From positions 1-30,556 of the IMG/VR virus record IMGVR_UViG_3300032312_000364: a stretch of DNA of 30,556 nt; one strand, given 5' to 3'. This document shows positions 15,134 to 30,556 of the stretch, piece after piece (the first letter of the stretch is position 1; each line of letters begins with the position of its first letter). The notes under the pieces were generated by a model. That model was not told the DNA's origin. It worked only from the letters and a program-made list of their open reading frames with translations, and did not search any database. The position numbers and the translations under genes are program-made. Origin of the DNA: a virus. Its lineage: Duplodnaviria > Caudoviricetes.

Positions 15134-15643
15134 TTACTGATCAATTATATCTGGCTTGGCTTGGTTTATCTCTTCGTATTTATTATATTGAGCCTCAAGG
15201 GTCGGTGAATCTAGCCAAGAAACGACTATGTTATTAACTGTTCCTTTGTTTACCATGTCTTTGCCTTTGCTTCCGTAAATGTCTGTTAATTTTTCTCCTA
15301 GCCACATTAAGAACTTGGTTTTCTCACGAAGAAACATAATTGTTTGAGGATCTGGGATATTATCAGTTGATGAATAGATATTAATTAATTTTTCAACGAG
15401 TGTCTGAACTCCTATCTTTCTTGCCTCTTCAAATCTTTCTTTTAATTCTTTATTCTCTGGCTTTCTTAACTGACTGTAGAATGACATCAAGCTGATCTGA
15501 TAAATATTGTTTGGCTTTAATAGCTCTGATACCTGAACTCCTGCGTAGATTTGCTCTATGAATGTATCGGCTAGTGTAGGATTGCTCAATAAGTTTTGGC
15601 TTGATTTTTCCGTAATAATATTGCTCGGCTTTGTTTCTGTCAT
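15134..15643 (-). CDS. terS: Terminase small subunit-like protein (Sf6 gp1-type)
   Basis: HTH-like N-terminus, ELKERFEEAR, LREKTKFLMWLGEKL..IYG and a C-terminal beta strand (IVVSW). Confidence 0.65.
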   Translation of the reverse strand: MTETKPSNIITEKSSQNLLSNPTLADTFIEQIYAGVQVSELLKPNNIYQISLMSFYSQLRKPENKELKERFEEARKIGVQTLVEKLINIYSSTDNIPDPQTIMFLREKTKFLMWLGEKLTDIYGSKGKDMVNKGTVNNIVVSWLDSPTLEAQYNKYEEINQAKPDIIDQ

Positions 15644-15902
15644 TGTTAAATTGCTTTAGTTTTTGGAGAACTGTTATCCTACTTTCATCATCATATCCAG
15701 ACTTTTTAAAACCACCCTTACCTGCTCTATCTTTGAAACCGAAGTAGTCTGTATTACCTCCACCATGAAACCTACATTTATAAATGTTATTACTTTGCTT
15801 ATCAAACTTACCTGTTGGATAGCCTTTTGCAAGGCAAGGTTTGTTACCCCTGTGTTTAGACACACCCATACAAAAGATCTTTCGGCTTGGTCTTCCTCCC
15901 AT
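15450..15902 (-). CDS. HGGxSTG-type Cys/His domain protein
   Basis: C..SK...KPC...CRFHGGGNT. Coupled to the initiator gene and overlaps terS by 194 nt. Confidence 0.7.
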   Translation of the reverse strand: MGGRPSRKIFCMGVSKHRGNKPCLAKGYPTGKFDKQSNNIYKCRFHGGGNTDYFGFKDRAGKGGFKKSGYDDESRITVLQKLKQFNNDRNKAEQYYYGKIKPKLIEQSYTSRYIHRANLRRSSGIRAIKAKQYLSDQLDVILQSVKKARE

Positions 15903-18720: not shown

Positions 18721-19686
18721 ATGGTTATTGATTTAACAAAGAACAATTCTATAGCAGCACTAAATAATTTTGATCCTGATATTTGTATTAAATATTATCA
18801 GGCACTTGGTTTAGACCACAGCTCACCATCACAGGATAACATGAGTGATTCTGATTGGTTGTGTAGATACGTTTTTTTTGATGAACAAACTAGGCGTGCT
18901 TTACAAGGTTCATACAGAATGTCAGCTGGCGTAAGCATTGGTAGAGCTTCTCAAAGATTTGTTTCTAAATATATGTATGAAGCAGAGAAAAGAATTCTTA
19001 ATGAAAAAAAAGATTTAGATACTATCATCAAAGAAGAATTAGATCTTTACGATAAGTATGTTGTTGCAGATGAAGAGGATAGAATACAAAAAGAAGATAC
19101 AAAAAATTATCTTGCAGATATGATTAAGATTTGTTGTAAAGCATTAGCTGATTTTAAGTTAGGAGATGAAGTAGCAAGCGAAAGATACTGCACTTATAAA
19201 TTTAAAGAATTAGTTTTAGAAAAATTAGGGAGAATAGATTACGAGCAAATGGATAAGTCAGGCAGTGCTGCTAAACTTATTGAACTTAAGACAAAGCATC
19301 GTAGCAAAAGAAAGTCAGATACAAAAGCTGGTTACTCTTGGGTAAAAGGATATTTGCCAAAAAATCCAGACTTAAACCATGTACGCCAGTGTGCTTTTTA
19401 TTGGTACGCCACAAAAAAAACTCCTCACTTGCTTTATGTTAATCAAGATAGCTACAATGTATTTACTCCTGACACTTGTGAATTGCTTACTCCTGAGTAC
19501 ATGGAATTTTTAATTCAACAAGATTTGATTAAATCTAAAATTCGCCAGAACTTGATCTACATCACAAAAGGAAATGCTCGTGAAATGGCTAAGCTAATTC
19601 CGCCGCCAGACTTCTCAAGTTTCATGTGGAAAAACATAGCTGATGAACATGTTAGATTAGCTGCATCACTATGGGACAATGTGTAG
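18721..19686 (+). CDS. PD-(D/E)xK exonuclease (RecE/Cas4-like recombination nuclease)
   Basis: H.SPS, E, GRID, IELKT and Q.AFY motifs. Confidence 0.8.
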   Translation: MVIDLTKNNSIAALNNFDPDICIKYYQALGLDHSSPSQDNMSDSDWLCRYVFFDEQTRRALQGSYRMSAGVSIGRASQRFVSKYMYEAEKRILNEKKDLDTIIKEELDLYDKYVVADEEDRIQKEDTKNYLADMIKICCKALADFKLGDEVASERYCTYKFKELVLEKLGRIDYEQMDKSGSAAKLIELKTKHRSKRKSDTKAGYSWVKGYLPKNPDLNHVRQCAFYWYATKKTPHLLYVNQDSYNVFTPDTCELLTPEYMEFLIQQDLIKSKIRQNLIYITKGNAREMAKLIPPPDFSSFMWKNIADEHVRLAASLWDNV

Positions 19687-19864
19687 AATTATGGATATAA
19701 ATTTTTATAAAAAAACTCATTATAAGATTATGGAAAGTTATAGGCATGATATTATGATGCGTAAAATTAAAGAGAGAGAAGATAAGTTATTTAGAAAAAT
19801 GTTTATAAAGATATTATTAATTATTGTTATAGTAATAGTGCTTATAACTTTAATTACTAGATGA
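19679..19864 (+). CDS. Small protein with C-terminal transmembrane segment
   Basis: Hydrophobic run ILLIIVIVIVLITLI. Confidence 0.65.
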   Translation: MCRIMDINFYKKTHYKIMESYRHDIMMRKIKEREDKLFRKMFIKILLIIVIVIVLITLITR

Positions 19865-20100
19865 AAGTAATTCTAATGATCATAATGATGAATGGCACAG
19901 TACATAATCTAGGCTATCAAGTAGAATCTTATGACGCTAGAACTTGCGATAAGTTATTTGACAGTGTAACTTACAAAGGAAAAACAAGTAGTAAGAATAA
20001 GGTAGGTACTTTCTATAAGTCAAAGGAAGTATTTGCTCATACTTGTTCAATAGAAAAAACAACTAAAGGAAACAATGAAAGAAAAAATAAAACAAGTTAA
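19861..20100 (+). CDS. Hypothetical protein with hydrophobic N-terminus and two Cys
   Basis: 79 aa; ATGA coupling. Confidence 0.65.
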   Translation: MKVILMIIMMNGTVHNLGYQVESYDARTCDKLFDSVTYKGKTSSKNKVGTFYKSKEVFAHTCSIEKTTKGNNERKNKTS

Positions 20101-20680
20101 TGAATTGTGTGCAGCCAATGGTGCATACATAAATCAACATGGTAAGAAAACAGTATCAGCTTGGTCTAAAGTTAAATACTTTAGAGAAGTATTTGGTACT
20201 GAGTTTGGGATAAATACTATGATTGTAGAACACTCTGACAGATATGTCATAGTTAAATGTTTAATCATGGGTTACGATCCTGAAAGAATTATAGCAACAG
20301 GTTACTCTAAACAGTTTAGAGATAAGCCAGGTTATCTTGAGATAGCTGAAACATTTGCTACTACACGAGCTTTATCATTCTTTGGAATTTGCTTGGAAGA
20401 TTTGACAAGCAAAGAAGAGTACGAGGATTTAGAGATCCCAGTACAACCAATGAATGGAAAAGATACTACATCAGCCGCTATAAGATATGATGATGGTATA
20501 ATTTTAGAGCTGACTAAGAAAATTAATTACGCACCGCATACAGCAAAACTAGATTTTCTGTGGCGTGCTAATAAAGATCTTCTTAATCAGATAAAAATAA
20601 AAGATCTCGCAACTTACAATTCTATCTTGCAAAGATTTAATAGTAAGCGTGATGAGATCACAACTCAAAATGAGGTATAA
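20075..20680 (+). CDS. Single-strand annealing protein (Rad52/Sak-like)
   Basis: V....KYFR..FG, IIATG, LEIAETFATTRAL..GI. Lies between the exonuclease and SSB-like genes. Confidence 0.7.
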   Translation: MKEKIKQVNELCAANGAYINQHGKKTVSAWSKVKYFREVFGTEFGINTMIVEHSDRYVIVKCLIMGYDPERIIATGYSKQFRDKPGYLEIAETFATTRALSFFGICLEDLTSKEEYEDLEIPVQPMNGKDTTSAAIRYDDGIILELTKKINYAPHTAKLDFLWRANKDLLNQIKIKDLATYNSILQRFNSKRDEITTQNEV

Positions 20681-21021
20681 TGAACGAGCAACCAAAGAAT
20701 AAGATATATTTAAATCTTGTTCCTAACTTAAATAAAAAGCCAGGCGATAATCAACCAGTATTTGTTGCACCAACATCTCCAAAATCCCCAGAGGGAAAAA
20801 ATTGGAAGATGAATGTGAACATAAATAATGAATGGTACGATTATGCGGCATTTGACGGAGTTTCGATTGATGGTGAACCAACAGGCGGTTACACTGTGAT
20901 CTTAACAAAGAAAGAAGCACAAGCAACAGCAGGAGCAAATAAACAACCAGCATTTAAAGCTGGTGGATTTCAAAAGAAAGCGTTTACAAGTAACAAATCT
21001 TTTGGTAATCGCAACTACTAA
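20680..21021 (+). CDS. Putative single-stranded DNA-binding protein
   Basis: N.NKK...QP.F beta-rich core with a flexible aromatic tail; synteny. Confidence 0.5.
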   Translation: MNEQPKNKIYLNLVPNLNKKPGDNQPVFVAPTSPKSPEGKNWKMNVNINNEWYDYAAFDGVSIDGEPTGGYTVILTKKEAQATAGANKQPAFKAGGFQKKAFTSNKSFGNRNY

Positions 21022-21111
21022 TAGTAGGTAATACTATTATTACCTCTATCCCTAGGGTTTTCATCAGGCAGTCATGCCTACCCTTTCATTGTTTCCCTAG
21101 GGGTAGAGTAA
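21019..21111 (+). ncRNA. Candidate structured RNA with a loop antisense to RBS/start regions
   Basis: Hairpin 21019-21039, then a ~17-bp stem (21040-57/21095-111) enclosing AGGCA-GTCA-TGCCT and unpaired ACCCTTTCATTGTTT. Confidence 0.55.
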
Positions 21112-21130
21112 AAAACAGAAAAGGATATAC

Positions 21131-21424
21131 ATGGTAAGCAAGTCAGACTTCATTGATATTGAAGAAAAAATTCAGAAAAGAATTATAGAAGAACGTAATC
21201 AAGAGTATGGAGATTACCAAGAGAACTTTGCATTACTTGCAGAGATGTTTTCAATAATACTTTTTAGTAAGATTAAAACAGCATTACAACCAGAAGACGT
21301 TGGTCATATAATGATGGCACTTAAACTATATCGCTGCACTAAGAAATACAAAGCAGATAGTTATGATGATCTATCTATTTATTGTAAGATGACTAAGCAG
21401 GTTAGGCAAAATAAAAAATCATGA
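21131..21424 (+). CDS. DUF6378-like phage protein
   Basis: ERNQEYGD...NF..A....V...M..LK..R...DSYDDL..Y. Confidence 0.7.
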   Translation: MVSKSDFIDIEEKIQKRIIEERNQEYGDYQENFALLAEMFSIILFSKIKTALQPEDVGHIMMALKLYRCTKKYKADSYDDLSIYCKMTKQVRQNKKS

Positions 21425-21621
21425 AGGTTGTAAGATTAAAAAAGTGTGAATGTTTTTTTACTTATGTAGAAGAATTTGACACAGCAGAACATGCTATTGA
21501 TCCTGATAAACGAGGTTTGTTTATTAAAGTTAAGGTTGGAGCAATAAGAGTAAACTCAGTAAGTATAAGACAGAAAGAAGATAAATATGATGAACATAAA
21601 GCAGCTAAAGGAACAAATTAA
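21421..21621 (+). CDS. Hypothetical protein
   Basis: 66 aa, coupled to neighbours. Confidence 0.65.
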   Translation: MKVVRLKKCECFFTYVEEFDTAEHAIDPDKRGLFIKVKVGAIRVNSVSIRQKEDKYDEHKAAKGTN

Positions 21622-22096
21622 ATTAAGATACACTACTAATGTGTATGCAAACTTAACAGATAAAGAACGCAAACTTTATCGTTTAGGTTTTAAGACTGGA
21701 TATAAATTAGCCAGAGAGTTTTTTAAAAAGCATGTTGTTACTAAACAGAATACAGTTTTTAAAGAAGTTGTTAAGTATGTAACAATCAATGATGTTGTAG
21801 TGCCTGAGAATGTAAAAGAAATGTTATCTATTGTTGCCAATCAACTTAGCATAGATGTTAATGAAATACTTACTAAGACTAGAATACAATCAGCTGTGAT
21901 TGCACGATCCATTTTAATTAATGTTCTTAGAGATAAGTACGCAATGCCATTTACAAAGATAGGCGTGCTACTTGGCAATCGTGATCATACAACTATGATC
22001 CATCATGTTAGAATGAAAATGAATAAGGAACATTTCTGGAAACCAGATCATATTATCTGGAACAGATATAAATATGTGATGGATAATGTTAAGTAA
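21587..22096 (+). CDS. Protein with DnaA C-terminal (domain IV) DNA-binding domain and no AAA+ domain
   Basis: KTR...IAR...KIG..LGNRDHTTMIH matches the DnaA signature RDHTT. Confidence 0.85.
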   Translation: MMNIKQLKEQIKLRYTTNVYANLTDKERKLYRLGFKTGYKLAREFFKKHVVTKQNTVFKEVVKYVTINDVVVPENVKEMLSIVANQLSIDVNEILTKTRIQSAVIARSILINVLRDKYAMPFTKIGVLLGNRDHTTMIHHVRMKMNKEHFWKPDHIIWNRYKYVMDNVK

Positions 22097-22261
22097 TTAC
22101 TTCTTAAATCCTGCTAATAAACTTTTATAAGACTTTTTAGAAATTGTAGATTCAGATTTAGATCTTGATGTACCAGCTTCTTTACGTTTGTTAATATTAT
22201 AATACAAACCTTTGCGAGCAGTTTTGCCTTCTTTAGTTTTATGATATTTAGATTTATCCAT
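22097..22261 (-). CDS. Small basic protein (54 aa; not in ORF track)
   Basis: MDKSKYHKTKEGKTARKGLYYNINKRKEAGTSRSKSESTISKKSYKSLLAGFKK. Confidence 0.75.
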   Translation of the reverse strand: MDKSKYHKTKEGKTARKGLYYNINKRKEAGTSRSKSESTISKKSYKSLLAGFKK

Positions 22262-22262
22262 A

Positions 22263-22424
22263 TTACATTGATAACAAGGATTTAAATCCTTTAGCCATCT
22301 TTCCTGTTACACCTTTAATAGTTCCTTTATTCTCTGACGCATAGAATACAGCTTTACCTTTTTCTTTACCATATTCTTTTTGCATTTCTGCTAAAATCTT
22401 TTTACCTTTTTTATTCAGTGGCAT
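22263..22424 (-). CDS. Small basic protein (53 aa; not in ORF track)
   Basis: MPLNKKGKKILAEMQKEYGKEKGKAVFYASENKGTIKGV... Confidence 0.8.
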   Translation of the reverse strand: MPLNKKGKKILAEMQKEYGKEKGKAVFYASENKGTIKGVTGKMAKGFKSLLSM

Positions 22425-23028
22425 ATTAATAAATTAGTTTGTTTGATTTAGAAAGATTAGCAGATGGTGTTAGATATTGCAAGTTCCATTCTACATGCAA
22501 ACCACAAACAGTCTTACCTTGTAATGGGACAATATGATCAACATGATAACCTTTGGGACAGTTCTTATATATCTCTTTTATCTTATTAAGATTAGCAAAC
22601 TTAGGTGTAGCTTTTAATTCTGATGCTTTTCTTTTAGCAAAGGCGGCTCTTTTAACATGAGGATTTTTTAAATTATATTTTTTAATTCTATTTTTTATTT
22701 TTTCTTTATTAATTAAAGAATATAATTTTACCTTTTTTTTTATTTTATCTATATTATTTATATAATATAATCTTTTTTTTTCTTTGTTTATTTTTTTATT
22801 ATTTAAATAATAGATTCTACGCTTTTCTTTTATTTTATCTTTATTTTTTAAATTATATAATTTATTTGCTTTATTTTTTTTATCTTTATTTATTAAATTA
22901 TATTTTTTTTGATATTCTTTAAGATACTCTATATTTTTTAAACGATAATTTTTATGATATTCTTTGTTATATTCTTTGTTTTTTAAACGATAAATTCTTT
23001 GATATTCTTTTTTATTCATTGGCATATT
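22406..23028. repeat. 22-bp direct repeats flanking the HNH gene
   Basis: CTTTTTTATTCAGTGGCATATT (22406-27) vs CTTTTTTATTCATTGGCATATT (23007-28); one mismatch. Confidence 0.8.
22426..23025 (-). CDS. HNH endonuclease with Lys/Asn/Tyr-rich N-terminal repeats
   Basis: YHVDHIVPL...[11 protein letters not shown]...N.SKSN; ~15-aa repeats YxLxNKxK; markedly lower GC than flanks. Confidence 0.9.
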
Positions 23029-23269
23029 TATGTCTGCACTTCTTTGTTTTTAAATAATCTATGTACATCTGCATACGCTTTTCGCTATCTTGATTAGCCA
23101 CTGGTCTTTCTTTTATATTGTTTTGTCTTGTTGTTTCTGATTGTTCGTAGCACTTTGTATGCTGACAAGTTCTGTCTGCAAAGATAACAAATGAATCTGT
23201 ATTGATAACTTCTATGTTACAAGATTTACAAAAGCCTACACTTTTCAATATAAACTTTTTCTTAGCCAA
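23012..23269 (-). CDS. Zinc-finger-like hypothetical protein
   Basis: CxxC...HxxC. Confidence 0.7.
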
Positions 23270-23271
23270 GA

Positions 23272-23544
23272 CTAACTCTTTTTATTTTTATTTGCGAAAG
23301 CTCTGGCTTCTTCTTTAGATCCAAATCCCCAGGCTTTAAGTGCTAGCTTTAATCTTGTTGGCTTACCAGATTTAGAAAGTAATGATCCCTTCATCCCACC
23401 AAACCTTGCAGCAAAAGAAACTCGTCTTGGGTTAGTACCTGTCTTTACAGGAGCTTTAAGATTAGATCCTTCAGTACGATTAAAGTATTTACGACCAGCT
23501 TCGTTTAAACCACCGCTAGGATTTTGATACATTTTTTTAACCAT
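23272..23544 (-). CDS. Basic conserved phage protein (DUF6321-like)
   Basis: GGLNEAGR...NLKAPV...RRVSFAARF...ALKAW. Confidence 0.7.
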   Translation of the reverse strand: MVKKMYQNPSGGLNEAGRKYFNRTEGSNLKAPVKTGTNPRRVSFAARFGGMKGSLLSKSGKPTRLKLALKAWGFGSKEEARAFANKNKKS

Positions 23545-23660
23545 TATAATTTCTCTCTAAAAGGGTTGTAGTCATCCTCATTTATCTTAAAGCATTTACA
23601 CTGTTTTAGTAAAGCACAAAATCCTTTTCTTAACCAAAAAATACATTTGACATTTAACAT
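23544..23660 (-). CDS. Cys-rich peptide (38 aa; not in ORF track)
   Basis: MLNVKCIFWLRKGFCALLKQCKCFKINEDDYNPFREKL; GGGGAG RBS; TAATG coupling. Confidence 0.6.
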   Translation of the reverse strand: MLNVKCIFWLRKGFCALLKQCKCFKINEDDYNPFREKL

Positions 23661-23663
23661 AAA

Positions 23664-23789
23664 CTATACTCTCCCCTGACCAACATATTCTTTATAAGTT
23701 TTATTTTTATTAACACGCTTAGTATGTCTGCCTTTTCTTTTCTTAGGTGGCTTTCTAATATGTTTGTTCTCAAGATTTTTTTTTGCCAT
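23664..23789 (-). CDS. Highly basic peptide (41 aa; not in ORF track)
   Basis: MAKKNLENKHIRKPPKKRKGRHTKRVNKNKTYKEYVGQGRV. Confidence 0.7.
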   Translation of the reverse strand: MAKKNLENKHIRKPPKKRKGRHTKRVNKNKTYKEYVGQGRV

Positions 23790-23895
23790 TCTTTTTCTTT
23801 AGTTTAATCTTAATGTTAGATCCTTGCTGAGCAAGTAAGCTAGGTTTCTTTTTAGAATAAGATTGTCCAAACATTGTAGAGATTTGATCAGACAT
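23770..23895 (-). CDS. Basic peptide (41 aa; not in ORF track)
   Basis: MSDQISTMFGQSYSKKKPSLLAQQGSNIKIKLKKKNGKKKS; coupled to the holin stop. Confidence 0.6.
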   Translation of the reverse strand: MSDQISTMFGQSYSKKKPSLLAQQGSNIKIKLKKKNGKKKS

Positions 23896-24275
23896 TATTT
23901 TTTAGTGAATGCGTCAATGCTCGGCTTCAACCCATAAATCGCACCGAAGATACCAACGATTAACCATTGATACCAACTAGGGAACTTACCAAAATAATCA
24001 AAGAACAAATCTAATTTAGATTTAATATTAATGTCATCACTAATAACTGCATAAGATAAAACAATAATAGGAATACAAACAACGATTAAAACAAATTCAT
24101 CTTTCCATGATTTGTCTTGTTGATCGTACACATCTCTAGTGTACTCTATTTCACCACGTGCCATGCGTTCATAGTGTCTTTTTTCAGCTTCAGATTCTAA
24201 TAGTTCTGATTGCTTATGATTCTTATAAATCTCAGCACCAGTTTTAAAAACAGTAGGTAATATATTCCACCACAT
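23895..24275 (-). CDS. Putative holin
   Basis: SWKDEF followed by two transmembrane segments and P.WY; adjacent to the lysozyme gene. Confidence 0.65.
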   Translation of the reverse strand: MWWNILPTVFKTGAEIYKNHKQSELLESEAEKRHYERMARGEIEYTRDVYDQQDKSWKDEFVLIVVCIPIIVLSYAVISDDINIKSKLDLFFDYFGKFPSWYQWLIVGIFGAIYGLKPSIDAFTKK

Positions 24276-24709
24276 TATATTTCACACTTCCTAACTAAGT
24301 TAGCCAGCTCTTCGCATCTGCTTGGTGTCTGTCTGTACCATGCTGAGTTTAACATTTCTGCAGCAGCTCTTGTGTAATCAAATTCGTTTAAAGCTGCAAA
24401 CATATTCTTAAATTTAGATACACCAGTCTTTCCTAATTGAAATACCATCTCAATAATAACTCCTTTAACAAGCATAGGTAAAGGCTGTGTTCCAACTAAT
24501 TCTTCCATACCTTGTTTAGCTTTAATAAAATCTTTATCAAACAATGCTTCAAGTATATCTTTGTCATAGATAATACCTTCTTCAAAATCATCATCTTCAG
24601 TAAGTAAATGACCATAACCAATAGTACCTTTGCCAAGTGAATCTAAATATACTTTGGCAGAGAAACCTTCGTGCTTCTTGATGCGTGTTTTAACGTCTTC
24701 GTAATTCAT
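24275..24709 (-). CDS. Endolysin, T4-lysozyme-like (GH24)
   Basis: HEG...YLDSLG..TIGYGH (E-x8-D-x5-T triad), M.FQLG, SAWYRQTP.R. Confidence 0.92.
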   Translation of the reverse strand: MNYEDVKTRIKKHEGFSAKVYLDSLGKGTIGYGHLLTEDDDFEEGIIYDKDILEALFDKDFIKAKQGMEELVGTQPLPMLVKGVIIEMVFQLGKTGVSKFKNMFAALNEFDYTRAAAEMLNSAWYRQTPSRCEELANLVRKCEI

Positions 24710-25008
24710 TTAATTAATATTTTACCATCTTCATATACATATACAATCTTAACATTCATAGTGGATTGTATTTTAGATGGAGATCTATTGATACGATCAT
24801 TCTTTTTGTGTGCATATTTAGTAGCTGACTTTCTATATGATACAGTCTTAACATCGTAGTTAGTATATTTTTTTGTCTTAGTATTAAATACAACAAGATC
24901 TATTGGACCAACACCACCTAGTGCTGTGAATACAATTAAGTCAGGATCTTTAGCAAAGTGTGCTTGTGCTAATGCTTCTGATACTAAACCCTTGTCTGAT
25001 TTCTTCAT
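24706..25008 (-). CDS. PD-(D/E)xK endonuclease-like protein
   Basis: KG..SE, GPIDLV and DVKT. Confidence 0.7.
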   Translation of the reverse strand: MKKSDKGLVSEALAQAHFAKDPDLIVFTALGGVGPIDLVVFNTKTKKYTNYDVKTVSYRKSATKYAHKKNDRINRSPSKIQSTMNVKIVYVYEDGKILIK

Positions 25009-25037
25009 CAGTATTGTAAACCCTTTTAGTTTTTTGT

Positions 25038-25268
25038 TTATCTAAATTGAAAGAAACTACCAACTGCTGTAACAATACCGCCAAGGAATATAATAAAATA
25101 AATAATCCCTTTACCTTTACTCATATCGCTACGAAGATCTTTAACATCACTACGCAATTCATCTATTGTTTTAATAAGTGTTTGCATTCGTTCAGCACAA
25201 ATCTTTTCATGTGCAGACAAACGAATAGATGTACCAGATGTAGGTTGCTTCTTTCTCTTCATACACAA
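25038..25268 (-). CDS. Coiled-coil protein with C-terminal TM (lysis-associated)
   Basis: RLSAHEKICAER, coiled coil, hydrophobic C-terminus. Start is probably the second Met (25262). Confidence 0.7.
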   Translation of the reverse strand: MCMKRKKQPTSGTSIRLSAHEKICAERMQTLIKTIDELRSDVKDLRSDMSKGKGIIYFIIFLGGIVTAVGSFFQFR

Positions 25269-25296
25269 GGTATAGTGGTTGTGGATAAAAAGTCAA
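25269..25296 (-). promoter_or_regulatory. Promoter of the lysis operon with a DnaA box in the spacer
   Basis: TTGACT-16-TATACC; TTATCCACA at 25288-25280. Confidence 0.6.
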
Positions 25297-25309
25297 TTAT
25301 AGATTGTTA

Positions 25310-25528
25310 TTATATTGATTGATTAGGTATCTCTATACAATCAAATAGGAAAGCAGGTTTATCTATTTCAAATTGTAATGGTGGGAATATAAGAGCTTGA
25401 TCTTTTATCAAATCATATCCAGCCATAGAGCATTCTTTGAATGTTTCAAACTTCTTACCTGTGCTTATTGTATCTAGGCAGTTAGTTGTAACCATTGAGC
25501 AAACTGTAAATACTAATAAAAAATTCAT
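25310..25528 (-). CDS. Small Cys-containing protein with hydrophobic N-terminus
   Basis: 72 aa, four Cys. Confidence 0.65.
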   Translation of the reverse strand: MNFLLVFTVCSMVTTNCLDTISTGKKFETFKECSMAGYDLIKDQALIFPPLQFEIDKPAFLFDCIEIPNQSI

Positions 25529-25533
25529 TAAAG

Positions 25534-25562
25534 TTATTTACACTAATATGTGGATAAGTAAA
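25534..25562 (-). promoter_or_regulatory. Candidate promoter overlapping a DnaA box
   Basis: TTTACT-16-TAAATA. TTATCCACA at 25557-25549, plus an inverted imperfect box TTATTTACA at 25534-42. Confidence 0.5.
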
Positions 25563-25590
25563 TAAAGGTGGTATTGCTACCACCTCTATT
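25561..25590 (-). terminator. Intrinsic terminator
   Basis: Minus strand AATAGAGGTGGTA-GCAA-TACCACCTTTATT followed by a T-rich run. Confidence 0.75.
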
Positions 25591-25601
25591 GTAAGGATTA
25601 A

Positions 25602-25760
25602 CTATTCGTTATCCTCATCCTCGTCTATATCATCCTCAAGATCATCATCTTCTAATTCATCATCATAAGAATCATCTTGATTTACTTGGAGTTCCAAGTC
25701 ATCTAATAAATCTTTTATCTCATAGATAATATCAGATGGGGATTTTTTCTTTTTTGCCAT
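25602..25760 (-). CDS. Very acidic small protein (52 aa; not in ORF track)
   Basis: MAKKKKSPSDIIYEIKDLLDDLELQVNQDDSYDDELEDDDLEDDIDEDEDNE; AGGAG RBS; own terminator. Confidence 0.8.
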   Translation of the reverse strand: MAKKKKSPSDIIYEIKDLLDDLELQVNQDDSYDDELEDDDLEDDIDEDEDNE

Positions 25761-25865
25761 ATCAAACTCCTATTAGTTGGTTTGGCATGTGCGAGATAAA
25801 GTTAATTGAATAATAAGTAAATAAAATTATTTTTTATAACTTATTGTTTTATAACTATTATTTAT

Positions 25866-25985
25866 TTATTTTTTATATAGTTTTTCTACTGTATCTGCGT
25901 AGTTCTTCCAGAATGATTTTGCATCTTCAAAAGCATCCGCATAGAACTTAGTCCAGTAGTTTTTAATATCAGTATAGTTTAACAT
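25866..25985 (-). CDS. Aromatic amphipathic peptide (39 aa; not in ORF track)
   Basis: MLNYTDIKNYWTKFYADAFEDAKSFWKNYADTVEKLYKK; GGAG RBS. Confidence 0.75.
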   Translation of the reverse strand: MLNYTDIKNYWTKFYADAFEDAKSFWKNYADTVEKLYKK

Positions 25986-26027
25986 TATATTCTCCATTGG
26001 TTAATGAAGGGTATATAGGTTAAATTA

Positions 26028-26135
26028 TTATATTTTCAATATGGCTTTGATAGATTCAATAGCTTTACTGATTTCATCTTTATAAGCATAACCAATGAAA
26101 CCTCCAGCTAGTAAACCAATAATAAGTGTAATCAT
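26028..26135 (-). CDS. Small membrane peptide (35 aa; not in ORF track)
   Basis: MITLIIGLLAGGFIGYAYKDEISKAIESIKAILKI. Confidence 0.7.
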   Translation of the reverse strand: MITLIIGLLAGGFIGYAYKDEISKAIESIKAILKI

Positions 26136-26136
26136 A

Positions 26137-26892
26137 TTATTTCTTGTTTAGTTGTGAAATAAAACTACCATAATATTCTGCACTTCCCAAGTGATTTATA
26201 GGTGTAGAAAGATCTGTCCAGATCTCAAAGCCACACTCTTCAGCTAATCTACAGAAATAATAATCTTCAGATAGAAATCTGTTTACTCCATCTTTCTCTT
26301 TATATATTCCAACAGGAAAAAAATCATACGCATTGTCTGATCCTTCTATTCCTGTTCTTAGATCTGGTTTGTATTTAAGATTAGGAAACTTATCCATAAT
26401 AGTATTAAACACCTCACGTTTAATTAACATGAAACCAGTAGCTGATTCTTTTACCCTTGCGAATCCCTGTTTAAATTCTGTGTTAGGATATAGATTAACA
26501 TTGAACTGCAAAAGATAATCACGCATTGTCTGTTCATCTATATTATTATTTTCTTTGATACGATCTAGTAACTGCTGCCAATAGAAACCTTTGACAGGAT
26601 AGGTGCATGTAACAACTTCTTTATTAAACTCTATAACTCTTAACAAGTTCTGTAGTGTAAAACCTATATCAGCATCAATAAATAAAAGATGTGTTCCATT
26701 AAATTCTTTATTATCTAAGAACTTAGTTACAAACTTATTTCTAGCACGATTGATTAAAGATTCAGTTGGTAGTGTTTCAATCCTAAGATTGTGTCCCATA
26801 TTATTTAAAGGTTTGATGCAATTAAATAATGAATGGAATGTCATGTTACTGATGTTGCCACCATAGCATGGGATTGCAATGAGTATGTTCAT
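26137..26892 (-). CDS. Glycosyltransferase (GT-A fold, family 2-like)
   Basis: ILIAIP, ESLINRARN, LLFIDAD (DxD), ATGFMLIKR and SEDYYFC. Confidence 0.85.
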   Translation of the reverse strand: MNILIAIPCYGGNISNMTFHSLFNCIKPLNNMGHNLRIETLPTESLINRARNKFVTKFLDNKEFNGTHLLFIDADIGFTLQNLLRVIEFNKEVVTCTYPVKGFYWQQLLDRIKENNNIDEQTMRDYLLQFNVNLYPNTEFKQGFARVKESATGFMLIKREVFNTIMDKFPNLKYKPDLRTGIEGSDNAYDFFPVGIYKEKDGVNRFLSEDYYFCRLAEECGFEIWTDLSTPINHLGSAEYYGSFISQLNKK

Positions 26893-26963
26893 AGTGTTTG
26901 AACAATCCCATTAATAAATTTACTTTGTAAATTTAAGCAAGGAATAGCAATTAATATATTCAT
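26889..26963 (-). pseudogene. Internally deleted glycosyltransferase paralog (24-codon remnant)
   Basis: MNILIAIPC is identical to the GT N-terminus but uses different codons. It is followed by a perfect hairpin, then a stop coupled (ATGA) to the GT. Confidence 0.7.
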
Positions 26964-26985
26964 AACCCTTTTAGGATTATTTATA

Positions 26986-27270
26986 TTATGGTTTAGTTGG
27001 GAATACTACTGAATTAACTTGTTCAACTGTTGATAAACCTTCAGTCAAATCTCTAAGTGATTGTCTGTAAGAAGACATAGCAGCAGATAAAGTATTATCA
27101 GATAAAGCAAGGTAATCTGTAGAAGCTAATAATGAATTACGTTTAGCTCTTAATGAAGCTAAAGATCTATCAAATGCTCCTGCATTCCAAGCAGTTTCGT
27201 CTGCCTGACGTTGAGCTATTTCCTCAGCACTAAGGGGAATTTGTATTCCATCTACTAATTTATGCTCCAT
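26986..27270 (-). CDS. Tail fibre assembly chaperone-like protein
   Basis: LRAKRNSLLASTD...YRQSLRDL...FPTKP. Confidence 0.8.
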   Translation of the reverse strand: MEHKLVDGIQIPLSAEEIAQRQADETAWNAGAFDRSLASLRAKRNSLLASTDYLALSDNTLSAAMSSYRQSLRDLTEGLSTVEQVNSVVFPTKP

Positions 27271-27424
27271 AATAATCTCCTTTTATATATTGGTTCTTTA
27301 CTGAATGCAATGAAGTAAAGCTCATCATATTATCTCCTATTTATTATTGTTAATTGAATTAGTCAAGTTATACGATTCCTGCGAAACAATAGTGTAGCTT
27401 GTGTTGTTTAAAATATCTATCATT

Positions 27425-28081
27425 TTAAACAATACCATACATTAAAATTGTTCCATCATCTATGTTTCCACTAGACATCTTAAATTGTACTGCATTAACA
27501 GCCGAAGTTGTATTTCCATATCCTGCTGAAAAGGAATCAACTATAAAATTACTAGCATACATTCCATTTGCTCTTGATATAAAATGCTTAACATAAGTAG
27601 TAGATGCTGGATTAAAAATTTGTAAGCACCCATTTGAATTGCTGTCGTTATCATTACCAATACCATCAGTAATTCTTTGAAAAGCCGTTGATTGTGCCAA
27701 GTCATCATCAGTGTCATAACCTACTGCTGCACTTGAATCACCTTCATTGTGTTCAGCTTGAAAAAATGTAGATGTTTTTGTTACGTTATAATTTGAACCT
27801 GAGTCTGTACTCATATTAAAAGTAAAAAAAGTATTATTAGTTGCTGGGTGTATATTAATAAACCAAAACTGATACTCTTTATAAGTAGAATCAATACCAG
27901 TAGTAAAAGAAATAGAAGCTGAGTTACTTGCTGTCTGCGAACTTATTAATTTCATACCACCAGTAGCAATCGCCGCATTGTAAGCAGTTACATTGGCAAT
28001 AGAATTGTTATTCAATGAAGCTGGTAATAAAACACCACTTGTAGTTATGTTGTTTGCGAATGATCTTGTTATTGTTCCCAT
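27425..28081 (-). CDS. Tail-tip/receptor-binding protein, paralog C
   Basis: LISSQTAS...STDSGSNYNVTKT...TTYVKHFI...NTTSAVNA.F.MSSGN...YG. Confidence 0.7.
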   Translation of the reverse strand: MGTITRSFANNITTSGVLLPASLNNNSIANVTAYNAAIATGGMKLISSQTASNSASISFTTGIDSTYKEYQFWFINIHPATNNTFFTFNMSTDSGSNYNVTKTSTFFQAEHNEGDSSAAVGYDTDDDLAQSTAFQRITDGIGNDNDSNSNGCLQIFNPASTTYVKHFISRANGMYASNFIVDSFSAGYGNTTSAVNAVQFKMSSGNIDDGTILMYGIV

Positions 28082-28138
28082 AAATAAACTCCTAGTTTAT
28101 GAATTTCTATATTGTAGTGCAACGGAAATATAGCCATG

Positions 28139-28822
28139 TTATGATTTTTTCACTCCGTATAATTTAATAACACCATCAAAGTTACCAGAACTCATTTTAA
28201 ACTGACAAGCATTTACTGCACTAGTTGTATTACCATAACCTGCAATATAACAAGGAATAGAATAAACTAAACCACCTGATGTACCGAAGTATTGTGTATT
28301 TGCTATGAAGTGTTTAACATAGGTAGTTGAAGATGGATTAAAAAGTTTTAATTCTCCACTTAAATTTCCATCAGAATCACTATTATCCATAATACTATCG
28401 CTACCAGCTAATGATAATACTTGAAATGCAGTAGATTGTGCCAAATCATCAGTATCAACATAAGCAATACCAGCACTAGAACCACTTTCATCATGATATG
28501 CTTCAAATGCAGTTGTGGTTTTTGTTACATTATAGTTAGAACCAGAATCTGTTGATAGATTAAAAGTAAAATCTACATTGTTATTTCTAGGTGCAATATT
28601 AATAAACTTAAACTCATACATATCATAAGTAGAATCCAATCCTGTTGTAAAAGAAATAGTAGCACTATTGGAAGCTGTCTGTGTTGATAATAATGTTAAT
28701 GTTCCAGCACTAGCATTAGCAAAAGAAGTTACAGCACTTACTGAAGAATTTGTAATTCCAGCAGGAAGTATAACTCCACCAGTTGTAATGTTGTTTGATA
28801 AACCTCTTGTGATACTACCCAT
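28139..28822 (-). CDS. Tail-tip/receptor-binding protein, paralog B
   Basis: Same conserved blocks as paralogs A and C, with loop insertions. Confidence 0.7.
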   Translation of the reverse strand: MGSITRGLSNNITTGGVILPAGITNSSVSAVTSFANASAGTLTLLSTQTASNSATISFTTGLDSTYDMYEFKFINIAPRNNNVDFTFNLSTDSGSNYNVTKTTTAFEAYHDESGSSAGIAYVDTDDLAQSTAFQVLSLAGSDSIMDNSDSDGNLSGELKLFNPSSTTYVKHFIANTQYFGTSGGLVYSIPCYIAGYGNTTSAVNACQFKMSSGNFDGVIKLYGVKKS

Positions 28823-28867
28823 TATTTAATTCCTACGCAGTTTGTGTTAAGTGAAATGTTTATCATT

Positions 28868-29518
28868 TTACTTAATACCATATAAATAAATTTTACCATC
28901 TGCAATATTGCCAGATGACATTTGAAATCTAATAGCATTAACAGCACTAGTTGTGTTACCATATCCTGCATTATAAGTGTCATAACTAGCATTGTCAGAT
29001 TGATATTTATTAACTCTACTAATGAAATGTTTTACATAAGTTGTAGAACTTGGATTATATAAATCTAAAAAACCAGAAACAGATTCGTCAGCACCATTAC
29101 CAATATTATCTGCAATAATTTGAAATGCTGTACTTTGTGCTAAATCATAATCAGTTTTATATTCTAAAGTAGTTGCCACATCAGATTCATAATGAGCCGC
29201 TACAAAATGTGTTGTAGTTTTAGTTACGTTATAATTACTTCCACTATCTGTACTCATATTAAAAGTAAAATTAACTGTATCAGTTGCTGGTCTAATATTA
29301 ACAAACACAAACTTATATGCTTTGTAAGTTGAATCTAAGCCAGTTGTAAAAGATAAACTTGCTGATGCCGAAGCAGTTTGAGAAGATATAAATGTAATTC
29401 CATCTTCAGCATTTGGCAATACAGTTATTCCAGTTACAGAAGAATTAGTTATAGCACCAGAAGTAAATACTCCACTTGTTGTAATATTGTTTGCTGCGGC
29501 TCTAGCGATTGCTCCCAT
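28868..29518 (-). CDS. Tail-tip/receptor-binding protein, paralog A
   Basis: Same conserved blocks; directly follows the tail fibre gene. Confidence 0.7.
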   Translation of the reverse strand: MGAIARAAANNITTSGVFTSGAITNSSVTGITVLPNAEDGITFISSQTASASASLSFTTGLDSTYKAYKFVFVNIRPATDTVNFTFNMSTDSGSNYNVTKTTTHFVAAHYESDVATTLEYKTDYDLAQSTAFQIIADNIGNGADESVSGFLDLYNPSSTTYVKHFISRVNKYQSDNASYDTYNAGYGNTTSAVNAIRFQMSSGNIADGKIYLYGIK

Positions 29519-29546
29519 AATTATGATAACCTACAAGTTAGTTTCA

Positions 29547-30556
29547 TTAGCTTAATCTCAAATATCTTACAGTAATTTCTGCTAGATTTGCTGGTGCAGT
29601 AGCAAATGTTAAAGTTGTACCTGATATTGTATAGTCATCAGTTGGAACTAATGTTAATCCATTAACCACCACTAGAATATCTGCAACTGCTCTACCAGAA
29701 TCTATTGTGATTGTAGTAGCTGAACCATTACCTGTAAAGTTAGCTGAAGTATAAGCACCACCAAGTGGTAAATATCTATAAGTTATTTCAGCAGAAGTAG
29801 CAGGTGCAGTTACGAAAGTTAATGTAGTTCCTGAAATTGTATAATCTGTTGTAGGTGTTAATTGAAATCCATTTACAAATACCAATACATCTTCAACTGT
29901 TCTACCAGATGAAATTGTAAATGCTGTTGTAGATCCATTGCCTGTGGCAGTACCTGACGAATAAGTTAATGTTGTAGATCCAAAAGATAATACTCCTGAT
30001 CCATTTGTTCTTAAAAATTGTCCATTAGTTCCATCAGTGTCAGGATAAGATATTCCATCTAATACAACTTTACCTGTACCATTTGGTGTAATGCTAATGT
30101 TACCATTAGAAGTAGATACTATTGAAAAAGTATTAATGTCTAAATTACCACCAAGTTGTGGAGTTGTATCTTGTACTAAATCTGTAATACCACCTGAAGT
30201 TACAGCTATCCAAACAGAACCTGTATAGTATTTTAAATTACCAGAAGTTGTATTATAATATAAATCTCCTGCAGTTAAAGCAGCACCATCATTATCTAAA
30301 GTTGGATCAGTTGCTTTAGCACCTAAGTAAACATCATCAAAATTATCAGCCGCTGTTAAAGCAGCATCTCTTGCAGCGTTAGCCGCATTAGCTGCATTAC
30401 TAGCAGTGTTAGCAAAGTTACTAGCATTGTTAGCAAAATTACTTGAATTGCTAGAATATCCTAAAGCTAAAGTTGCATTAGCTGATGCAAAACCTGCTTG
30501 TGTTGTAGCAGTTGCTGCATTTGATGAAGCAAAGCCAGCTTGTGTAGTTGCAGTAG
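29547..30556 (-). CDS. Tail fibre protein, 3' part (start lies beyond the window)
   Basis: The frame of the 112-aa track ORF stays open to the window edge. Ala/Ser/Asn coiled coil, FDDVYLGAK..DPTLDNDG, DTTPQLGGNLD, ITPNGTGKV, LRTNGSGVLSF, then two ~70-aa tandem domains. Confidence 0.88.
   Translation of the reverse strand, partial: TATTQAGFASSNAATATTQAGFASANATLALGYSSNSSNFANNASNFANTASNAANAANAARDAALTAADNFDDVYLGAKATDPTLDNDGAALTAGDLYYNTTSGNLKYYTGSVWIAVTSGGITDLVQDTTPQLGGNLDINTFSIVSTSNGNISITPNGTGKVVLDGISYPDTDGTNGQFLRTNGSGVLSFGSTTLTYSSGTATGNGSTTAFTISSGRTVEDVLVFVNGFQLTPTTDYTISGTTLTFVTAPATSAEITYRYLPLGGAYTSANFTGNGSATTITIDSGRAVADILVVVNGLTLVPTDDYTISGTTLTFATAPANLAEITVRYLRLS

Follow-up and report, generated by a model that had tools for sequence, protein, structure and literature searches.

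Optional hairpin-bearing insertions at gene starts and ends in the tail-tip operon of an HTVC010P-like phage

Why should every spacer of a phage operon be a short open reading frame (mini-ORF), most of them with a hairpin? The question is raised by a 30,556-nucleotide (nt) stretch of viral DNA, IMG/VR record IMGVR_UViG_3300032312_000364, hereafter the window. It comes from an HTVC010P-like podophage; HTVC010P, a SAR11 phage, is its best cultured match and its relative, and phages of this type are among the most abundant viruses of oceans and lakes. The window's minus strand encodes, in order, a tail fibre, three paralogues of phrog_14820 (P1-P3), a tail chaperone (PF16778) and a protein of 251 amino acids (aa). 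A reading made from the sequence alone took the spacers for scars or recognition sites of a process that deletes or swaps host-range genes, loosely analogous to integron attC sites. Comparison with relatives suggests instead that they are optional insertions of 25-60 bases at gene starts or ends, which rebuild the displaced gene piece and carry a hairpin on the template strand. That they are insertions rather than scars is far more secure than any mechanism.

The five mini-ORFs of the sequence-only reading all translate as it gave them; four spacers are filled, the fourth with two mini-ORFs. Two layouts recur. In the 5' type (S3, S4b), the old ATG is kept and is followed by a hairpin, usually a second hairpin with a ribosome site in its loop, and a new ATG. 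In the 3' type (S1, S2, S4a), synonymously recoded last codons and a stop are followed by ATG, a hairpin and the old gene end, so that the mini-ORF often closes with the residues that also end the host gene (RLS*, GIK*, YGVK*). The 5'-type sequence found in S3 and S4b is termed family A. The inserts and hairpins of the window are as follows.

29533-29558, minus strand: S1, 26-nt insert of the 3' type, with a recoded RLS* end and an ATG; the old RLS* end follows at 29532-29521; mini-ORF 29547-29521
28833-28878, minus strand: S2, 46-nt insert of the 3' type at ATG^G; the order is recoded GIK*, ATG and old GIK*; mini-ORF 28866-28822
28844-28878, plus strand: S2 hairpin of 15 pairs, 2 of them G.T, spanning the recoded P1 end (z -5.2, for a region chosen after inspection)
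28079-28134, minus strand: S3, 56-nt insert of the 5' type (family A) that follows the old ATG start codon at 28137-28135 and holds two successive hairpins and a new ATG
28107-28133, plus strand: S3 hairpin of family A, with 7 pairs, an internal 3x3 loop closed by G.A and a GCA triloop
27379-27435, minus strand: S4a, 3'-type insert of 57 nt at ATG^G; recoded GIV*, ATG
27401-27435 (new end) and 27364-27401 (old end), plus strand: S4a hairpins
27271-27328, minus strand: S4b, insert of family A following the old start of the chaperone gene; mini-ORF 27328-27260
27296-27320, plus strand: S4b hairpin with GA/GA and GCA triloop
26889-26963, minus strand: S5, sixth cassette; the next gene's start appears as a first copy (MNILIAIPC), then come hairpin 26915-26935 and, at 26892, the recoded working start

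Two of these features, the 14-pair hairpin at 27401-27435 and the sixth cassette S5, had escaped the sequence-only reading. The 24-codon mini-ORF of S5 ends in an ATGA overlap, the first nine codons of the 251-aa gene are duplicated, and a second stem (26868-26911) pairs the working start. Among the three hairpins proposed earlier, 27296-27320 and 28107-28133 match their description; 27364-27401 is a genuine 10-pair stem, but its GC-GAA-AC cap has a C.A closure (a C-G closed form occurs in loci L013 and L027). The two remaining spacers had been called degenerate. S2 in fact holds its 15-pair hairpin, with a mini-hairpin of 2 pairs and a GCA loop ahead of it in 28833-28843; for S1 the folding is not significant (z 0.0 / -0.65). 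The second hairpin of S3 (28084-28100) has the ribosome site within its loop. GNA triloops and tandem G.A pairs are stable in DNA.

The window alone gives thin evidence, and support stems from its relatives. The hairpin at 27296-27320 is the sole strict stem-GA-NN-GNA-NN-GA-stem in the window (versus 0.0 in 30 shuffles), the loose motif is near chance there (4 sites, 5 rows versus 2.3 rows in shuffles), and the folding of S1-S4, taken as whole spacers, does not exceed that of shuffles (z -1.9 to +0.9). The stretch is not an assembly artefact, because contigs from a sequencing run that may be its source match it with zero differences; a precise empty S3 joint (28080-28139) was present in three of the four runs compared.

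A search with P3 returned 80 loci. We analysed 45 close loci together with the window (46 sequences) and excluded 35 (L045, L046, L048-L080) from the junction counts for their differing arrays; the counts include the window and a few near-duplicates, and L004, L031 and L044 were dropped from the independence test only. Each of the four junctions was either empty or filled (filled, in order, in 13/36, 17/39, 13/45 and 18/46), with longest filled alleles of 63, 98, 64 and 154 nt. At the first three, the commonest alternative allele was a TAATG overlap. All four junctions are thus polymorphic, in line with the earlier expectation that the spacers vary among relatives. The S2 insert is identical in L002, L004, L008 and L013, and collapsed alleles exist that keep the recoded end only, or a short remnant. 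The short allele is a clean overlap, into which the long alleles are insertions. Separately, empty junctions of L011 and L006 (P2 end) and of L043 (fibre end) have an end recoded from Ser TCA to AGC, resembling a collapsed insert.

The complete filling of the window, previously taken for a feature of the system, is a matter of chance, because all four junctions were filled in 1/34 loci and filling was about independent (permutation p 0.08). A genome-wide factor filling all junctions was rejected on the same test, and one junction pair of six was associated (fibre-P1 with P2-P3, p 0.002).

Could the spacers nevertheless mark a system for the deletion or exchange of host-range genes, as its scars or as attC-like sites? 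The hairpins do lie between variable tail-tip genes, paralogue number varies in distant relatives, and two relatives (G015, G017) do not align over the tail module. We find this reading scarcely credible, as no larger allele was seen in 46/46 close sequences or in 167/167 scorable family A contexts. The searches behind this negative were protein-based (80 loci), aimed at recoded ends (5 and 11 loci, 4 of the 11 being unrelated chance matches) and made with family A; the interval from the first paralogue to the chaperone held no further ORF of >=60 aa in any of the 46 sequences. Paralogue bodies are ~55-70% identical between relatives, their first 120-240 nt and last 30 nt mostly 75-100%, and this mosaic pattern with conserved ends is equal at filled and empty junctions. 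Exchange of paralogue bodies therefore needs no hairpin, and the most variable arrays, the excluded ones of 3-7 paralogues, have no strict hairpin. Integron attC sites are characterized by R boxes, extrahelical bases and an integron integrase. Between the inserts no gene cassettes are gained or lost; no R boxes were seen by eye in the family A alignment, no attC-like core was found, and no recombinase hit was obtained among the window proteins scanned (a subset of ORFs, from ~30.6 kb of a likely 35-kb genome).

Family A links these junctions to many other genes. Pattern searches yielded 99 viral loci and 119 metagenome loci, the metagenome scan having taken in 10/64 parts, in 171 distinct contexts. 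The element lies before more than 10 gene families, cultured HTVC010P included; the genes downstream are paralogues, MAYT/MAYI, MAID, MAIT, MAST and MAII types and the gene after the replication initiator. The next gene begins 38-92 nt downstream in 167/167 scorable contexts (4 are at contig ends), and in none of the 167 is there a gene inside the element. The left flank was ATGG in 96/97 matches to a pattern without that requirement, and the gene after the element starts ATGG in 166/167 contexts, which are related, versus 283/736 (38%) gene starts. The right end occurs in 62 variants of 7-61 nt; that is, the element ends are not conserved. At MAYT-type starts in loci not selected for family A, the element was missing in 6/6. 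With a covariance model, 557 kb yielded 11 copies at E below 1e-4; each record held one or two of them, and all lay in tail regions. The S3 hairpin scored 45.4 bits with this model, of which its sequence type was part, and the copy in cultured HTVC010P, a sequence outside the model, scored 34.1 bits. No autonomous partner copy was found in the viral, genome and metagenome collections (10/64 parts of the last). The genome scan for host copies gave 9 loci, none named Pelagibacter: two phage-like contigs in metagenome-assembled genomes, three Flavobacteriaceae repeat loci and four chance matches.

In HTVC010P itself (KC465898.1; L180, 5139-5792), the annotated start of AGE60300.1 is the ATG of the family A element, in frame, and the true start likely lies 16 codons further on. 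Its next two junctions hold shorter mini-ORFs with the ribosome site in the hairpin loop. In relatives L134, L163 and L165, family A sits before the counterpart of window ORF 15450-15902, which overlaps ORF 15134-15643 (both minus strand) by 194 nt in a different frame; the second is terminase-small-like.

The fold of family A is conserved. On the template strand, 96.9% of 229 stem cells are paired and 7/10 pairs are doubly changed; 0/500 shuffles were comparable to the 44 doubly changed cells, and slid controls were likewise far off. G.A closures are retained in 2x2 and 3x3 loops. Among the non-Watson-Crick cells, the template strand has 23 G.T, spread over seven positions, and the sense (mRNA) strand has none; at one of the seven, the search pattern itself barred sense G.T. 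In 41 stems from protein-selected loci, the sense strand showed 15 A.C, 0 G.T and 19 other mismatches. Since the four-fold sites of the region have no C/G skew (26 C, 25 G), mutation bias is an unlikely source of this wobble strand bias. Covariation and the 23:0 wobble count thus bear out the earlier claim of strand-specific plus (template) strand hairpins with a GA/GNA cap.

Although the 3'-type inserts differ in sequence, they are built alike: a leader of 11 nt, which in five of them contains a covarying mini-hairpin of 2 pairs, precedes a long stem holding the recoded end. The hairpin pairs the duplicated working copy in S2, S4a, S5, L139 and L290. Across inserts of unrelated sequence, ~11/52 nt lie outside hairpins, versus 24 in shuffles. 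In the paralogue genes both insert types break at sense ATG^G, and the hairpin terminates 0-1 nt from this break in 16/16 correctly cut inserts.

These structures bear on the idea that the inserts are neutral debris left by fold-back and template-switch repair at hubs of recombination, with quasi-palindrome correction making them uniform and coupling as the sole filter. Such an origin would suit the 3'-type inserts, which consist of a copy, an inverted copy and a copy of the local gene end, as well as the many unrelated sequences and the frequent collapse. We judge it very improbable: one family turns up before unrelated genes without copying their starts, the non-canonical G.A closures persist, and the even four-fold sites leave the wobble bias unexplained.

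How would a gene tolerate an insert at its start or end? In 62/62 distinct tails of family A, the mini-ORF stop lies in the interval from 2 nt ahead of the next ATG to 13 nt past it, whereas 500 shuffles gave 18.4 on average and at most 29; the interval was chosen after data inspection and the tails are related. This placement agrees with the earlier proposal that the operon stays translationally coupled, presumably via the mini-ORF. Most added second hairpins are 30 nt long, which preserves the frame, and the ribosome site often lies within the hairpin loop of the inserts. The mini-ORF peptide varies and is not conserved.

A terminator or promoter role of the inserts was rejected. The hairpins are not RNA terminators, no terminator-like match having been found at any insert, and promoter-like sites in 26700-29800 were at chance level (21 vs 19.6). 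Rfam gave no family in 21000-30556, the 2 hits (E 0.8 and 3.5) being chance. One promoter-like stretch stands before the chaperone gene.

27339-27366, minus strand: TTGACTAA-led stretch, promoter-like

It is retained in filled and empty alleles alike (45/46), is absent from the consensus-scan list, and is a possible internal promoter.

The inserts could still be regulatory cassettes, a leader ORF with a ribosome-site hairpin that tunes the tail-tip protein at the mRNA level and is kept by selection on the phage. Stop placement, the frame-preserving 30-nt add-on hairpins, the ribosome site in the loop and the clustering at tail genes would all accord with this, but the wobbles lie on the non-coding strand by 23:0, the peptide lacks conservation, most relatives lack the insert at each junction, and neither a terminator nor an Rfam match was obtained. 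We consider regulation improbable. The promoter early stem-loop (PeSL) cassettes of T4-type phages, described as a sigma-70 promoter plus a terminator stem that mediate shuffling of the genes between them (PMC2839356), resemble the inserts in being small intergenic stem-loop cassettes between a stop and a Shine-Dalgarno sequence or ATG, in variable phage regions. The inserts differ in lacking a promoter or terminator match of their own, the TTGACTAA stretch being present also in empty alleles; in addition, their fold is on the template strand, they contain a mini-ORF and a second copy of a gene start or end, and exchange does not require them.

One full gene of the window has the junction layout of the inserts.

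22426-23025, minus strand: HNH-type free-standing nuclease gene, AT-rich; its first 19 nt match the next gene's start at 18 positions

It has what we take to be an HNH motif. Its family occupies many different junctions in relatives (79 loci), with variable N-termini. The MAYT-type tail gene has three kinds of allele at its 3' end, empty, mini (L139, L290) and full HNH, and L224 has a new end IPATAR*, the HNH gene and an old end IPATAR*, the HNH frame ending in the displaced old gene end. The HNH nucleases common in these phages might cut the junctions, an insert and recoding that break the site being converted into sensitive genomes; minis may then be reduced nuclease alleles. Recoding of Ser (TCA/AGC) and Arg, with and without insert, would fit, as would marker exclusion and the intronless and collaborative homing described for T4-like phages (PMC2988022). 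We nonetheless hold this explanation to be unlikely. No HNH gene stands at the paralogue/chaperone junctions (46/46), and an HNH motif lies within the 2.5-kb flanks of just 1/80 family A loci. By eye the minis are unlike HNH gene ends, a strict scan gave no hairpin in HNH loci L186-L264, and immunity does not require a conserved fold. The inserts share with free-standing homing endonuclease genes and their intronless or collaborative homing (PMC2988022, PMC10448857) the insertion at a junction with a rebuilt start or recoded end (window 23025-22426, L224), but they have no nuclease gene (0/167 contexts, 0/46 loci) and no linkage to one (1/80), and their single-strand fold is conserved.

A dedicated enzyme might instead read the single-stranded hairpin and move or cut the insert: an HUH peel-and-paste transposase, an Ssn-like GIY-YIG nuclease, or a site-specific recombinase on a small circle. 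The sequence-only idea would then apply to the insert itself and not to host-range genes. The fixed ATG^G break with the hairpin end 0-1 nt away points in this direction, and so does the replaced 3' end, a footprint of integrative elements. A further parallel comes from a Flavobacteriaceae genome, in which CGTC repeats flanking a GIY-YIG gene are topped by the same cap as the phage hairpins, an arrangement described for Ssn (PMC11893778). In L272 (1477-2230), L270 and G029, the CGTC repeats have long apical extensions capped GA-NN-GNA-NN-GA and flank a 96-aa GIY-YIG gene; the published Ssn-related motif (SRM) pattern misses them.

CGTC-tagged repetitive extragenic palindromes (REPs) and SRMs associated with the GIY-YIG nuclease SsnA are, like the inserts, directional single-stranded DNA (ssDNA) hairpins (PMC3733652, PMC11893778). 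In the Flavobacteriaceae examples the shared cap sits on an 8-pair stem, and G029 gave 8 hits with the phage model. The phage inserts differ in having no CGTC tag, either in the family A alignment or in the window, and no flanked nuclease gene; they number about one to six per genome and are tied to start or stop codons. The SRM pattern had no match in the window, the Flavobacteriaceae positive control being missed as well, and a tblastn search for relatives of the GIY-YIG protein gave no hit in the window or the 526 loci (host genomes not searched). The 3'-type mini-ORFs as starts of GIY-YIG genes were rejected, there being no GIY-YIG motif ORF in L001-L180. With no autonomous copy in 171 contexts, element ends that are not conserved across types, and no integrase in HTVC010P-related phages according to the available text of one study (10.1101/672428), a dedicated enzyme seems unlikely to us.

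Short gene-less hairpin DNA or a replaced gene end is also known from IS200/IS605-type elements, MITEs (miniature transposable elements with inverted repeats), integron attC sites and integrative elements. Like one or another of these, the inserts are gene-less, have a one-strand hairpin by a fixed 4-nt site (ATGG 96/97) and a precise empty allele, and replace a gene end. Unlike them, they have no ends conserved across types, include working host-gene parts, and came with no transposase or integrase that we could find.

How, then, might the inserts spread? The junctions are islands of recombination, and identical inserts occur in backgrounds that are 55-70% alike a few hundred bases off. A putative recombination machinery is encoded in the window.

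18721-19686, plus strand: Cas4-like exonuclease gene (phrog_1706, E 9e-5)
20075-20680, plus strand: gene for a Sak-like annealing protein (Atlas 0.95 to PF06378 clusters, a lead; no Pfam hit)
20680-21021, plus strand: gene presumed to be SSB-like (no database hit)

The region 18721-21021 (plus strand) is likely a recombination module; the window also encodes a Hjc-like protein (25008-24706; an Atlas lead), and no reverse transcriptase was found among the window proteins scanned (paralogue context 27425-29518). Annealing proteins have a strand preference, and hairpins drive deletion on the lagging template.

Our preferred explanation, held tentatively and at somewhat less than an even chance, is that the inserts are translation-neutral, non-autonomous selfish elements that spread by homologous gene conversion or single-strand annealing, with the one-sided fold as a ratchet that makes gain easier than loss. 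Both the enzyme and the drive are what we infer. Ribosomes would read the mini-ORF and restart at the next gene, so that an insert would cost little. During coinfection, the phage exonuclease and the Sak-like protein would anneal single strands at the islands, where a donor strand that folds away the whole insert and the duplicated copy could anneal to the empty site via both flanks. Because the opposite strand would fold less well, with A.C instead of G.T, and the duplicated copy carries recoded codons, deletion by slippage and blocking of the mRNA would both be reduced. Rare jumps to new genes might use the common TAATGG microhomology. A bolder version, which we regard as doubtful, casts the inserts as an enzyme-free gene drive written in DNA structure: 50-base parasites of pelagiphage operons, invisible to ribosomes, winning recombination because the fold forms in the donor strand alone, and rivals of homing endonucleases at start-stop junctions.

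Several observations weigh against spread by such a ratchet. Neutrality or balance would also suit a polymorphism at 30-44%. Related sequences, not independent events, make up the covariation counts, and 19/34 stem mismatches in the protein-selected loci are of other kinds. The predicted energy gap between the strands is small, the template strand being lower in 14/17 with DNA parameters (mean -1.1 kcal/mol) and in 11/17 with RNA parameters (one row mis-cut), and S1 lacks a fold altogether. The ATG^G break has exceptions: S1 lies at G^G without ATG, and S5 and the MAYT 3' alleles of L139 and L290 break elsewhere. Sense-strand A.C follows equally from selection for weak mRNA structure, and the conserved GA/GNA cap and the exact placement of the hairpin at the break look like an enzyme site. 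For the strand prediction, neither skew nor iterons gave a signal of replication direction.

The genes between which the inserts lie are listed below.

29547-30554, minus strand: tail fibre gene, 3' part (tail-fibre PHROGs), extending beyond the window; its last codons are the recoded copy from insert S1
28868-29518, minus strand: paralogue P1, 216 aa, phrog_14820
28139-28822, minus strand: paralogue P2, 227 aa, phrog_14820
27425-28081, minus strand: paralogue P3, 218 aa, phrog_14820
26986-27270, minus strand: tail assembly chaperone gene, PF16778

In two relatives, loci L299-L300 (G017) and L297-L298 (G015) show no alignment to window 26900-30200 across the fibre end, the triplet and the chaperone, with 78-90% identity to the window elsewhere; the whole tail module appears to have been replaced.

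No published description of these inserts was found in the literature searched, which included few subscription papers. A paper on HTVC010P-related phages reports patchy HNH genes, and its available text contains neither 'hairpin' nor 'intergenic' (10.1101/672428). The inserts are a real, widespread and structurally selected family akin to non-autonomous palindromic elements. They mislead annotation, as in GenBank CDS AGE60300.1, which begins at an element's ATG. Because cultured HTVC010P carries one insert, the system can be tested in culture and with oligonucleotides. If an enzyme reads the inserts, the covarying GA/GNA cap shared with Ssn-type repeats would point to an unknown ssDNA-processing protein. 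If an enzyme-free recombination bias holds true, the inserts would represent a minimal class of selfish DNA and would offer a design rule for moving insertions by single-strand annealing.

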